NCBI GenBank assembly: GCA_964016885.1
Contig: OZ024743.1
Span: forward strand, 148,242,001 to 148,306,000
Length of the DNA: 64,000 nucleotides
Direction of reading: 5' to 3'
From: Eledone cirrhosa
Lineage: Eukaryota
The stretch's first letter is position 1. Every line of letters begins with the position of its first letter. Positions 7,291-46,696 of this stretch are shown piece after piece. The translations under genes were made by a program, and so were the position numbers. The notes beneath the pieces were generated by a model, which saw only the letters and a list, made by a program, of their open reading frames with translations, searched no databases and was not told where the DNA came from.

Positions 7291-7484
7291 TGCAGGAATT
7301 GTGATAAGGAACCAGATGGACCATAACGCACCAAAGTACTCAATACTTAGTGTAGTAGAGTGGGTAATAGGAACAAGTATGACCCCGACGGCAAAGCTCA
7401 AGCCGTTTCAATGGCTATTTCTGGAGTCCAGAAATAGCCGTCGAAACGGCTTGAGCTCTGCCGTCGGGGTCATACTTGTTCCTA
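7291..7484. repeat. Hairpin mini-insert family A, copy 1
   Basis: Near-perfect palindrome at ~7368-7484, apex TTTCTGGAGTCCAGAAA, plus a one-sided tail; (TA)n on both sides. Confidence 0.9.
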
Positions 7485-7564
7485 TATATATATATATATA
7501 TATATATATATATATATATATATATATATATATATATACATATACATATATATATATATATATA

Positions 7565-7625
7565 TATTTAATTAACAGCCGTACTAATAGTGGGAAATGA
7601 AATTTCGTTTCATTTTTTCCGTTTA
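7565..7625 (+). repeat. Terminal fragment of the retrozyme-like family (cf. 51185-51235)
   Basis: CAGCCGTACTAATAGTGGGAAATGAAATTTCGTTTCATTTTTTCCGTTT is the reverse-complement homologue of 51185-51234; TA-flanked. Confidence 0.75.
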
Positions 7626-7905
7626 TATATATATATATATATATATATATATATATATATATATATATATATATATATATATATATAAATATACACACAG
7701 TTATATTATATAACTGCTATAGATCAGACCCGAAACGATAGAAAACAATGATATAGGTAAAATAATTTGACTTTGTTGTTATTATTTTCATTGTTAAATT
7801 AATAAATAATACATATATATATATATATATATATATATATATATATATATATATATATATATATATTAGTGGATTTAAAGGATCTATATTGAAAATACCA
7901 CTCAA

Positions 7906-8403
7906 TGCTACAGTAGTGGTTATACATTAAGAGAAACAGAAAGAGGTTTCGCATTGATGTTTTTCTTTATTAGGCTCAGGTACGAACATTTCACTGATGG
8001 GTGGCTCAAATTCCATATTTGCGTTATAGACCCGTCTGCAGGCTCAATCTGCTCATCGAAATTGTTAATCATGTGCATGCGCTTGTGTATGTGTATGTGT
8101 GTGTGTGTGTGTGTGTGTGTGTGTGTGTGTGTGTTTGTGTGTGTAAATATGCCTGTATCTGCGTTGGTTGTTCTAAACCCATGTACTGATCCGCAATTTA
8201 AGATTGGATGCGTTCAGATAAGATTCTGTTTTTGCTTGATTAACAATTGTGATGAGCATATTGGGGCTGGAGTCAGGTTTATTACACAAATATGGATCTT
8301 GAGCCAACTATCTATGAAACGTTCGTAACTGAGTTTAATCAATAAAAACCTTAATGTGAGACTTCGTTTTTGTTCGGTGGAATGTATACACTCTGCTATA
8401 GCA
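7906..8403. repeat. Old fold-back / MITE-like inverted repeat (~165 bp arms)
   Basis: 7906-8072 aligns by eye to the reverse complement of 8236-8403 with many substitutions; the spacer contains (TG)n. Confidence 0.75.
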
Positions 8404-8559
8404 TAGAGGGCTATAGCACAAATCTACAGAATCACCACAAATCTACAGAATCACAACAAATCTACAGAATCAACTAATATATATGTGTGTGTGTGTTGGT
8501 GTGTTGGTGTGTTGGTGTGTGTGTGGGGGGGGGGGGGATTTCGTTTTTCCGCCCGATTT

Positions 8560-8960
8560 TCTCGTAACATTTATAGAATGAGAAGATAATGCAATGTGGT
8601 CAATTTCGCCCTCTGCATCCCACTATATGGTTACTTAGAAGGATCGTTCTTGTGTATGGTTACCTAATTTGCTGGCAGTGAACTGTCATTCTTTGTCATC
8701 GTATTAATCCTGTTTGGCCACTCTTACATTTTGTAAGAGTGTTGCACAAGCCACAGTTAGATCAGTTGGATTGTTACTCTTCAGGCTCTTTAACTACGAT
8801 TTGCAGCTTTGCATTTGTTGGAATCTTTCTTAGTGGCTTATGTTGTCATTTGCATTTTATAATTGGGTATTTTTGTAAGAGGTTTTTCATATGATTGTCC
8901 TTTAGTAATATAGGTAGTTTTAGATATTTGGTGTACGGAATCGTGGCTATCAAATACTGG
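8560..8960 (-). pseudogene. Decayed PLE (Neptune-like) linker/GIY-YIG fragment
   Basis: Minus-strand translation with stops: IIKCK*QHKPLRKIPTNAKL...NCGLC...GQTG...QRMTVHCQQIR*PYTRTILLSNH...IFSFYK. Confidence 0.6.
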
Positions 8961-9709
8961 TTGGATTTATTCCCCTTTGAGCCACCAAACCGTATTGACT
9001 GAAACCGTATTGCATCGCAGTCGGTCTTCAATTTATTTCTAAAAATACTACAGGTTCGACGAAAAAGCATACCTACAAAAATCAGGAACAGCTATTAGGA
9101 CAAATATTACTTCAACATACGCCACCTTTATCATCGGATACCATGCATTACACATCTACAAACAAACGTTTATATTCAAAGGGAAACTTAGAAAAGTAGA
9201 TATGAAAAAAATTGTAAATCAGTTTTAAGCGAAACCGGTCAAATACACAAGTAAAAAAGTACTTAATTTGATGGGAAAATATTTCTTTTGTGGTGTACTA
9301 TAACACCTATATATAAAAAATAATATATATCAGGTACTTCTTTCAAATCTTTATTATTTATATATATAGCACAATTTGTATAGGAATCCTTAATTTTCCA
9401 AAAATTTGATTTTACTTTCTCGCTTTCTCTCTCTCTATATACTTCTCTGTATATATACTTTGCATATATACTTCGATTCACACACTCACACACACACACA
9501 TACACATACACACACACACACACATGTATATATGTATATATATATACATACATACCATATATATTACATATACATATATATATATATGTATGTATATTAC
9601 ATATAAATATTTGTAATATGCATATATACATCATATATATATTACATACATAAATATATTGATATATATTACATATATATAAATATATGTAATATATATA
9701 TATATATAT

Positions 9710-43768: not shown

Positions 43769-44149
43769 AAAAAAATCAATCTGTGAACGCAGAAGTAAAT
43801 ATTTCGAAAAACGTTGCAACCGAAGGAAGACAGGAAGACGATACTTTGGTTCGTGAAGACGTTCCCTGGCAATGAACGGAAAAAAGCGAAGATAATACGA
43901 TATTTATTTATTTATGTTTCTACATGTATGTGGTTACTATATGAAGTGATTCGAAAAGAATATTAAACCCAGCTGATGATCCGAATAAGGTAAACCAATT
44001 GTTCTCGATAATGGTGAACTAACTGTTGTGGAACTACTTCTACCAAACCGTCCCATGAATTGAGTGCTCTATTACATATATATATATATATATATATATA
44101 TATATATATATATATATATATATATATATATATATATATATATATATAA

Positions 44150-44690
44150 TTAAGTTAAAAATGTACATCCACATATGTATACTGAAATACTAGTATGCAT
44201 ATGAATACACACACGTGTACATATGTAGATGTACCGAGTTTTTCACTGTACACTTTACTGTGAGTGTCCAGCTATTCTGTATGTAAACACACAGACAAAC
44301 CGGTTTTTAGAGTCATACTGGTTTTCGAGGAAACACCTTTCCTCTATTCTCCAGAAAGCCAGACAAGGAATATTGGACTAGTTTCGATGTTGTTACATCT
44401 CATCAGCAATATTTACCTATCTTCCGGCCTTTCTAGAGAATCGTAAAAGCACATATCGTTATATGCTTTTTCTATGAAAATTAGTAGTGGGCAGACTAAT
44501 TTGCATAGAGCGTGAGTACGTACCGGTTCAGCGGAGACGATAAAAACAAATAACGAAACGAAATTAAATTTCGTTTCGTTTGTAACTCACTTTTGTATGA
44601 CTAACTTAATTGTTTAAGCGTCAGTCATACAAAAGTGAGTTACAAACGAAACGAAATTTAATTTCGTTTCGTTATTTGTTTTTATATATA
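44150..44690 (-). mobile_element. Non-coding retrozyme-like monomer E (~455 nt) with 5' inverted arm
   Basis: Contains an intact HHR; collinear conserved blocks with 51185-51787; 44612-44685 is the inverse of 44540-44603; (TA)n flanks. Confidence 0.75.
44369..44413 (-). ncRNA. Intact type I hammerhead ribozyme
   Basis: AATATTG CTGATGA GATGT AACA ACATC GAAAC TA GTC CAATATT: canonical core, GUC triplet. Confidence 0.93.
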
Positions 44691-44753
44691 TATAAATATA
44701 TATATATATCAATGATATTAATAAATGGAAACTATATTTATAAATCCATATTG

Positions 44754-44814
44754 ATTTTATTATATATATTTCAAGGGTACCAAAACACTTTGGTACGCTT
44801 TCATCAGATAAAAT
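44754..44814 (-). ncRNA. Intact family D type I HHR in a 150 bp TA-flanked insert (44710-44860)
   Basis: ATTTTAT CTGATGA AAGC GTACCAAA GTGT TTTGGTAC CCTT GAAAT ATAT ATA ATAAAAT. Confidence 0.88.
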
Positions 44815-45784
44815 ACAAAATTTGTTTTATAAATAGTGACATACCCGATAAACCAGACCTTATATATATATATATGTGTGTGTGTGTGTGTATATAATGT
44901 ATATATGTATGTGTGTATATATATATATATATTTATGTGTGTGTGTGCGTGTGTGTGTGTGTGTATGTGTATAATATATATATGTATGTATGTATATATA
45001 TATATATATATATATATATATATATATATATATATATATATATATATATATATATATGATGGAACAAGGCTTCTCATATCCATTCATCGATGTAACCAAG
45101 GCTCAAATAAACTTTCATTCAGTTTATAATGCAGAGTAAAATCCAAAATAATCCCACCTTTAATATATTATCAATAAAATATAAATTCAATAATCACACG
45201 TTTGCAACGGAGTTGTCAACATTCTCAATCATAGCCAGCGGTTTTTCTCTTTCCCATTACTTCCTGTCCCCACCTTTAAACATATTCATTTCTTTCGTCG
45301 CTTCCTGTATACATATATATCTGCGGAGAACGTTCATGTGTGTTGTTGAATTCCTTTGCAATATTGTTCATTTCGTTGTACGTTTGTCATATGTTTCTTG
45401 AGTAATTAAGAATTGTTGGTAATCTTTCGTTTAGAGTATCATTGCCTTTTCCTTGGACAGCATCGGTGGCGTGGAGAGAGGGAACTGGTATGCATGAATA
45501 ACTGCTGTTTTTCCACAAACAAACGTTGCCCAGGCTTGTGCATCTGAGTGAAACTTTCTAGGGGCAAAACCAAGGTAATTAGTCACCGACAGGAGCCTGA
45601 TATATATATATATATATATATATATATATATATATATATATATATATAGAGAGAGAGAGAGAGAGAGAGAGAGAGAATTAGTATATTTACCAACATATGC
45701 GTACAGATGTACACTAATGTTAGCAAATACATAAGTTATGTCACAGTACCTAGGTGGTTCAATGCAGGAGGATGCAGAACAATT

Positions 45785-46470
45785 ATATGAAAGACGTAAA
45801 ATAAGAAAATTTTAAAAATTAAAAATCAACTTACTTACTAAAATGTTCACTCCAACTAATTAGTTTCTGTAATGGGATAAAGATAGTTACGCAATGTAAC
45901 CATCGAGAATTCATTACGTCATCAGGGAGTCTATTCTCAGCTAAGTCTCCAGGCAATGCGCGGACACTAGGGACTCATATAAAAATAATAATAATTCGGT
46001 GGATGGAACAGCTAGCGGGGTCTGAATTCCAAAGCACTGAAAAAGTTCACTGTCTCTGGTCAAATGGCAGATTCTAAAGAATCAATCACGTGACACTGAG
46101 GCTAGTCGGAAGGAGTGGGGTCGTAAAATGACAAAAGCCTACTACCACTACAATGAGTTAGTAGTGGATTTGGCAGGTTTGCTCAACAAATAAATAATTT
46201 GGAGATAAATATTTCAGTGCTTTGGAATTCAGTCCCCGCTAGCTGTTCCAGCCACATAATTATTATTATTTTTAAATGAGTCCCTAGTGTCCGCGCATTG
46301 CCTGGAGACTTAGCTGAGAATAGACTCCCGGATGACGTAATGAATTCTCGATGGTTACATTGCGTACCTATCTTTAACCCATTACAGAAACTAATTAGTT
46401 GGAGTGAAAATTTTAGTAAGTAAGTTGATTTTTAATTTTTAAAATTTTCTTATTTTACGTCTTTCATATA
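45785..46470. repeat. Head-to-head inverted repeat (~260 bp arms) of an HHR-bearing pLTR-like sequence
   Basis: 45785-46043 is the reverse complement of 46211-46470; ~165 bp spacer. Confidence 0.92.
45849..45930 (-). ncRNA. Type I HHR with expanded stem II (mirror at 46324-46405, plus, U4G)
   Basis: ACTCC CTGATGA C GTAATG [AATTCTC GATGGTTAC ATTGC GTAACTATC TTTATCC] CATTAC A GAAAC TAATTA GTT GGAGT. Confidence 0.85.
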
Positions 46471-46503
46471 TATATATATATATATATATATATATATATA
46501 TAT

Positions 46504-46696
46504 ATAGGAACGAGTAGGGCCCCGAAGGCTGAGCTCAAGCCGTTTCGACGGCTAATTCGTCCAGAATTAGCCGTCGAAACGGCTTGAGCTCACCCGTCGG
46601 GGTCCTACTCGTTCCTATTACCCACTCTACTACCCTAAGTATTGAGTACTTTGGTGCGTTATGGTCCATCTGGTTCCTTACCACATTTCCTTCGTT
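46504..46696. repeat. Hairpin mini-insert family A, copy 4 (opposite orientation)
   Basis: Palindrome at ~46504-46618, tail to 46696; (TA)n flanks. Confidence 0.9.

Follow-up and report, generated by a model that had tools for sequence, protein, structure and literature searches.

A 64-kb stretch of the 3.0-Gb Eledone cirrhosa assembly (contig OZ024743.1, positions 148242001-148306000; hereafter the window) carries inserts made of two head-to-head arms of the same sequence, one of which, the short arm, typically runs into a (TA)n tract, while the other, the long arm, is usually prolonged by a tail. These fold-back inserts are 5′-truncated stubs of Penelope-like elements (PLEs), not miniature inverted-repeat transposable elements (MITEs). 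They are on balance most plausibly read as head-to-head insertions of endonuclease-bearing (EN+) Penelope elements, at least two of the Hydra type, that were double-primed at a cut (TA)n tract on RNA from one locus. Two primed cDNAs best fit the pairing of the arms. Across 1.45 Mb, one arm abuts (TA)n in 109 of 229 fold-backs, and the tails of the other arm are mostly 40-100 nt long.

The first sample (1.254 Mb) comprises the window and 119 spread 10-kb stretches, a hold-out of 20 further spread 10-kb stretches completes the 1.45 Mb, and targeted genome searches were added to the sampled stretches; L-numbers (e.g., L296) denote genomic loci outside the window. An arm end was counted as lying at (TA)n if it fell within 4 nt of such a tract. 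By this measure, a single arm end is at (TA)n in 87 of the 190 fold-backs of the first sample, both ends are in 7, and neither is in 96; the corresponding figures for the 39 of the hold-out are 22, 1, and 16. At least one arm end is at (TA)n in 94/190 and 23/39 fold-backs, against about 5 expected overall. Among the 96 first-sample fold-backs with no TA at an arm end, 21 belong to one tandem array and 17 lie within 20 nt of TA. Tracts of (TA)n are dense across the window. Extrapolation from 1.39 Mb gives approximately 72 inserts per Mb, mostly stubs lacking an open reading frame (ORF). The arms are 77-100% identical to each other; nearly complete folding is predicted for them, a trivial outcome for inverted repeats.

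The Penelope origin proposed for these inserts in the original prediction, which was made from the window sequence, is borne out by an ORF encoding reverse transcriptase (RT) and endonuclease linked to family 0, by hammerhead ribozyme motifs, and by the one-sided tail. For family 0, which includes the window inserts 7291, 26735, and 46504, the genome holds at least 2,174 candidate sites, and a 3′ region and ORF were found upstream of its pseudo-long terminal repeat (pLTR). At L296:1368-3974, a single insert, a tail-less family-0 short arm is fused to a 2.5-kb body containing an RT core, a Hydra-type endonuclease, a hammerhead fold, and a tail; its 402-aa ORF, recognized by the motifs YRDDG and VIY..YIG, lies upstream of the pLTR in the same sense. 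Family 2 (insert 17903) is joined to endonuclease ORFs in L297-L299. A CxCX5C linker, the absence of CCHH, and CxxC and CxH flanking the conserved E and N are found in L296, L170, and L298, and the linker is the sole Hydra feature read in the element at 18746. Hydra-type ORFs are tied only to families 0 and 2 and the 18746 element, and the assignment, a motif comparison, covers these three. Pfam returned no domain in three of the family-0 and family-2 RT-endonuclease ORFs tried, and gave a sub-cutoff GIY-YIG match at window 3953-4345. N-terminal parts are absent or broken in the PLE ORF loci examined, and no full-length copies of the fold-back families were recovered. Insertion into (TA)n, a feature of the Hydra clade, is present in these families. 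PMC8557442 describes a tail and (TA)n targeting in Hydra PLEs, and the C-terminal EN+ PLEs of this clade, including Hydra-1_Obim, share with the present families the (TA)n preference, hammerheads, CxCX5C linker, lack of CCHH between GIY and YIG, and conserved E and N residues flanked by CxxC and CxH.

Hammerheads give the orientation of the arms. A descriptor run on the 87 first-sample inserts with one TA end found motifs in 14 inserts from 9 families, and all 14 point outward, in agreement with the earlier statement that 3′ ends face outward wherever a hammerhead gives the sense. Rfam yielded one sub-threshold HH9 match, the rest being mostly microsatellite-driven microRNA matches, and a PDB search returned nothing useful. 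Stem III is a short palindrome in families 2, 4, 6, and 15 and at 44406, and a stable hairpin in family 0. The cores of family 4 (window 40026-40095) and family 0 (L296:3800-3900) read UUGAnAA, with U3/A8 instead of C3/G8, a compensatory pair. The family-0 hammerhead has a long stem II, within which the putative transcription start lies.

The position of the short-arm end is constant within each family. Overlap was defined as the bases common to the short-arm junction with (TA)n and the continuation of the long arm, and was scored in fold-backs with exactly one arm end at (TA)n (87 in the first sample, leaving aside the 96 with no TA end and the 7 with two). The null drew positions within 40 nt, a stricter version allowing the better TA phase. 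An overlap of at least 3 bases is present in 50/87 copies (null fraction 0.079) and in 16/38 families, compared with 3.4 expected and 6.7 under the best-phase null (p=3e-4). In the hold-out, 13/22 copies show it against 4.7 expected, copies not being independent by family. The TA enrichment at arm end points that had been suggested for testing is thus present, as a tendency and not a strict rule. Where subfamilies differ, the (TA)n phase tracks the element's own sequence (TTCC|TAT vs TTTC|ATAT). The motif ACTC occurs within 16 nt after the short-arm end in 10/38 families against 2.6 expected, and because of this enrichment, a signal read by the protein probably helps to set the site. The earlier claim that the short arm stops at an internal TA stands insofar as TA is enriched there, but each family uses one fixed site and not any TA.

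That the two arms were copied separately is indicated by how their ends combine. The first sample contains 20 family-0 head-to-head pairs, of which 15 join an internal to a tail end, 1 joins two tail ends, none joins two internal ends, and 4 are unclassed; one-of-each pairing therefore holds in 15 of the 16 classed pairs (p=2.6e-4). The thirty best family-0 copies have common outer ends and differing centres. In 27 of the 42 inserts with an assignable spacer, the tail-less arm holds further 5′ sequence, so that in these neither arm can have been copied from the other. Among the first 26 inserts with a longer-reaching tail-less arm, the spacer exceeds 40 nt in 14, and a few of the short spacers may be small template switches. 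Centres are shorter than 14 nt in 48/109 inserts. A bias of the short arm toward a leading polymerase was considered and dropped, as the hold-out failed to repeat it. At L105:3079-3191 and L149:5097-5198, fold-backs are seen whose centre junction itself holds a (TA)n run. The original idea that both ends of a break in (TA)n prime cDNAs that are then joined is largely right: separate priming and a centre made anew each time are upheld, but endonuclease cutting at TA could also have set the end.

Both arms appear to derive from one source locus, because they share rare source variants; the template may have been a single RNA or two transcripts of that locus. In 35/38 cases, the partner arm is a closer match to an arm than the family median is. 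The 17903 insert carries two substitutions on both arms that occur nowhere else in the genome, and in family 2 there are 9 variant sites shared between arms and 12 discordant. A rare family-2 allele has 164 matches in the genome and is found in 3 of the first 100 of 2,589 in one subfamily. Among the first 100 of the 164 matches, it lies on both arms of 28 inserts (in four, 2.6-7.5 kb apart), and of the 36 singles fetched, 5 have a partner with the common allele, which could reflect new mutation. Two source haplotypes per insert were also considered and rejected: the family-0 cases came from query-biased matches, L265 and L272 had been matched to a neighbour that was not their partner, and misalignment explained L268 and the 5′ part of L295. 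No A-to-G bias is evident by eye among the variants on both arms.

The inner ends of family 0 carry what looks like the trace of a capped transcript. In all 1,477 5′-complete junctions found, both arms reach the same 5′ base (AGTCC). Base-level reading of the first 50 listed shows G at sense -1 on at least one arm in 30 and on both in 9. The spacer is 0-1 nt long in 28 of them, and where it is a single base, that base is C/G in 19/21. Long family-0 copies carry T before AGTCC. Copying the capped end of an RNA usually leaves an additional G, and an initiator is resembled by TTT-AGTCC. Family-0 stubs thus seem to copy the capped 5′ end of a transcript that starts inside hammerhead stem II.

These observations can be assembled as follows. 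A (TA)n tract is likely cut on both strands by the protein of the element, and both cut 3′ ends are likely extended with RNA of a single source locus as template. One of the copies starts at the tail end; the other starts 40-100 nt upstream at a fixed position, where the cut TA repeat likely base-pairs with a short run of U/A. Both cDNAs would run toward the 5′ end, many reaching the capped transcript start and adding an extra C, and the joining of their 3′ ends would add 0-4 untemplated bases or would follow trimming or short template switches. Coordination may be by a protein dimer and not by a ribozyme dimer, on one RNA or on two transcripts of the same locus; a ribozyme-dimer tether is not needed. 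On a single RNA, the trailing copy would displace the leading copy. In its most specific and only tentatively held form, one capped and uncleaved RNA serves a single RT-endonuclease dimer, which primes the two ends of the cut TA repeat from two sites 40-100 nt apart, the inner site being chosen by TA pairing; the same stretch is copied twice with strand displacement, the cDNA ends are joined, and approximately 200,000 stubs are the fossil record of this process. If so, the tail, the inverted pLTR, and TA targeting would be explained in one step, and the stubs would be a leading source of the genome's double-stranded RNA (dsRNA).

Several results weigh against double priming by TA pairing on one-locus RNA. 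The overlap is just 0-1 base in 29/87 copies and 17/38 families, and the family-level excess is marginal at a 2-base threshold (p=0.047). A family-fixed end means that its TA could be the endonuclease site. No sequence was found beyond the tail end, where any pairing at the long-arm end would show: for family 0, the 20 of 64 genome matches that were read share no common continuation, and for family 2 the sequence beyond the tail end was likewise not found. None of 78 candidate empty sites was usable, the 13 apparent ones being other PLE ends or the same locus, so that neither a prior (TA)n tract nor a target duplication could be read in the microsatellite flanks. Four neighbours among the 36 rare-allele singles are internal+internal, some of which are probably separate inserts, and arm-to-arm gene conversion could add to arm similarity. 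The further 5′ reach of the tail-less arm (26 vs 11 in the first sample, p=0.02) does not recur in the hold-out (1 vs 4) and is not significant when pooled (p=0.09). The cap signal is seen at scale in one family; a second has 5 matches, 2 with C. The anole PLE PAc starts at a site without homology to the cut DNA (PMC11167929).

Lengths of (TA)n to the left and right, expected to be correlated under duplication of the full tract, show rho 0.18 (p=0.35, n=29). Short non-TA motifs on both flanks, inverted in L022 and direct in L020, are possible target duplications.

The alternative that survives best, although unlikely, also has both arms templated by RNA, with the tail-less end arising from an endonuclease cut, from repair trimming at the element's own TA, or from a start set by the protein, so that TA is a cut site and not microhomology. 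The constancy of the end within families and its position beside ACTC accord with it, PMC8557442 attributes the tail to endonuclease-mediated resolution, and the anole PLE needs no homology to start and cleaves its own junction at AT-rich sites (PMC11167929). Against it, the (TA)n phase follows the element's sequence, in one case (insert 39845) the end comes 5 nt short of the usual point, within TCTCT next to a (CT)n target, and tail boundaries coincide with RT start sites in vitro (PMC11167929).

Another reading is snap-back, in which a single cDNA, or an antisense RNA as PMC3846280 proposes, turns back on itself and copying continues until capture at a TA. Such self-priming would account for the private variants common to both arms, as in family 2 and the 17903 haplotype, and for the 48/109 centres shorter than 14 nt. 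As a general rule it is contradicted: 27/42 tail-less arms hold 5′ sequence absent from the tailed arm, which in turn holds the tail, and the 0-1 nt spacers of 28/50 complete junctions leave no loop for priming. Self-priming is accordingly very unlikely here, though it could apply to a minority with loops of at least 3 nt.

Still less credence is due to the version first put forward, in which each arm is templated by its own RNA molecule and a hammerhead dimer tethers the two RNAs. Minimal PLE hammerheads have been proposed to act as dimers, with low activity reported (PMC4209133), several families have palindromic stem III motifs, and two transcripts of one locus are possible. However, the arms share source variants and are not drawn randomly from the family pool; family-0 stubs start inside stem II, lack the 5′ half of the ribozyme core and stem I, and have a stable hairpin as stem III; the 44540 arms contain no hammerhead; fold-back arms run through the uncleaved hammerhead site; and ribozyme mutants leave insertion unchanged in vitro (PMC11167929). 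Finally, fixed MITE-like masters or assembly chimeras, suggested by outer ends that are constant within families, are scarcely credible, as centres and arm lengths vary where a MITE would keep its interior constant between terminal inverted repeats, the tail is one-sided, family 0 continues into an RT-endonuclease ORF, the arms are 77-100% identical, and raw reads contain the family-0 exit into (AT)n.

The read evidence comes from three raw restriction-site-associated DNA sequencing (RAD-seq) runs under the same species label. Between 2,559 and 2,960 reads exit family 0 just past the internal TAT into (AT)n, and 887-1,713 exit near the tail end. The centre is crossed at a depth of only 67-120, because 6,885-8,860 molecules stop at 46565, likely a restriction cut. 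Because few reads cross the centre, the raw reads back the family-0 ends better than the centre junction, and the proposed check on raw reads is borne out for the former and sparsely for the latter.

In L1 twin priming, a second strand primes internally by microhomology to yield a head-to-head inversion, the arms covering different parts of one RNA. The arms described here instead both cover one and the same stretch, and their internal start has a constant position close to the 3′ end. EN+ PLEs are known to carry an inverted 5′-truncated pLTR and a one-sided tail, for which self-priming has been proposed (PMC3846280) and whose origin PMC8557442 calls undefined. The present inserts resemble these complex insertions in the head-to-head inverted copy, one-sided tail, palindromic or overlapping junction, AT-rich targets, and pLTR hammerheads (PMC3846280; PMC8557442), and differ in their longer tails (mostly 40-100 nt vs 30-40), in the dominance of ORF-less stubs, and in microsatellite flanks in which duplications are unreadable; the data speak against self-priming as modelled in PMC3846280. 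For PAc, a Poseidon element of the green anole, both strands are nicked and extended in vitro, two internal starts bound the tail, a dimer is predicted, and no ribozyme cleavage is needed (PMC11167929). Tail-bounding internal starts and the use of uncleaved RNA as template are common to PAc and the present families, whereas overlaps of 3-5 TA bases are enriched here and PAc starts without target homology. In its accessible text, PMC11167929, the only full-length in vitro PLE study found, leaves inverted arms unexplained.

The inverted pLTR with one-sided tail, TA targeting, and the two internal starts are therefore already published, and this is a real rule of a known element class, the new part being evidence on mechanism: self-priming accounts for the counts less well than twin priming does, and for TA-targeting families they link the internal start to pairing with the target. 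Neither the TA overlap nor the one-of-each count nor the cap trace was found stated in print in a search outside which most subscription papers lay. The stubs are likely mistaken for MITEs or short interspersed elements (SINEs) in repeat libraries, and the available text of PMC13282606 treats Penelope as copy counts only. A density of approximately 72 inserts per Mb may, speculatively, help explain the unusually many predicted long dsRNA loci and the extensive hyper-editing reported for octopus (PMC5625713).

Within the window, the ten inserts of the original prediction and the inverted pLTR of its third PLE are all confirmed as head-to-head arms with a one-sided tail, but the eleven real cases represent about eight families and are not independent events. 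The overlap is 2-5 bases in 10 of the 11, the exception being 39845. The distinction between long and short arms holds for the 3′ end, which is shorter in the short arm, but the short arm often extends further 5′ (22222 and 44540). Of the three family-0 (Hydra-type) stubs, 7291 spans 7290-7482 (tail 7290-7369, long arm 7370-7424 in minus sense, short arm 7427-7482 in plus sense), its short arm ending TTCC|TAT before (TA)n with overlap TAT (3). The second, 26735, spans 26756-26941 (arms 26830-26941; overlap TAT, 3) and has a shortened tail joined to other DNA, with no (TA)n on the tail side. The third, 46504, spans 46507-46695 (short arm 46507-46559, minus; long arm 46562-46615, plus; tail 46616-46695; overlap TAT, 3). 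A further family-0 stub with a rearranged centre, absent from the earlier list, lies at 9711-9849.

Family 4 is represented by two inserts. That named 9853 spans 9861-10216 (short arm 9861-10005, minus; long arm 10008-10152, plus; tail 10153-10216; overlap TATA, 4). The other, at 39845-40186, has its tail from 39845, arms at about 39915-40186, and hammerhead-like motifs at 40026 (minus) and 40070 (plus). Its short arm ends 5 nt before the usual family-4 end and, as originally noted, joins (CT)n, here (CT)11(AT)32(AG)n; the left side holds (CT)11(AT)33, and the two flanks suggest a duplication of about 86 bp. The insertion site is the central (CT)n(TA)n(AG)n microsatellite of an older head-to-head pair (approximately 90% alike) at 39502-40585.

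The family-7 fold-back at 15586-15802 has its tail at 15586-15672 and arms at 15673-15802 (overlap ATAT, 4). The family-2 insert 17903 spans 17907-18359, with the short arm at 17907-18087 (minus), the long arm at 18090-18270 (plus), and the tail at 18271-18359 (overlap TATAT, 5). It is followed by the 5′-truncated Hydra-type PLE at 18746-21899 on the minus strand, comprising a tail (18746-18838), a pLTR (18839-19185) with the hammerhead core at 18946-18927, a broken RT/endonuclease remnant at about 20046-21365, and the inverted tail-less arm (21566-21899), whose overlap by eye is ATAT (4). The family-14 insert 22222 spans 22224-22653 (short arm from 22224, minus; long arm 22411-22491, plus; tail 22492-22653; overlap TA, 2), and most of its 105-nt spacer is further 5′ reach of the short arm.

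The family-9 insert 44540 occupies 44148-44682, with arms at 44543-44682 and overlap TAT (3). Its long arm extends leftward for approximately 395 nt, through a hammerhead (44406-44382, minus), to (AT)n, so that the hammerhead sits in this tail and outside the arms. Families 5 and 9 form a related ORF-less group (44148-44682, 51186-51844, and 7573-7623) in which more than a single internal end is apparently joined to TA, the hammerhead lying downstream of the first such end. The family-15 insert 45785 occupies 45677-46465, with the tail at 45677-45788, the long arm at 45789-46042 (minus) containing a hammerhead at 45925, and the short arm at 46212-46465 (plus; overlap ATATA, 5); its tail terminates in (CT/AG)n, not (TA)n. 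In L006, L013, L030, and window 45677-46695, stubs are serially nested in one another's (TA)n flanks, some as additional short arms with TA runs between.

Other elements of the window include a Hydra-like PLE at 1769-6561 (minus strand) with frameshifted RT and endonuclease, which has a 73-bp direct repeat at each end, both beside (TA)n, and no inverted arm. A different broken PLE lies between (TA)n tracts at 22740-25880 (minus strand); its GIY-YIG domain has two cysteines between the motifs, and it has no sequence match to the 22222 insert. A solo minimal hammerhead at 51042-51147 is followed by approximately 80 nt and (TA)n and has no inverted arm. At 56962-64000, two broken copies with endonuclease and RT motifs are visible by eye, whose ORFs we take to have the look of a long interspersed element of the L1/Tx1 type. 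A SINE-like family unrelated to the fold-backs is present at 28774-29480, 47109-47292, and 54553-54738.

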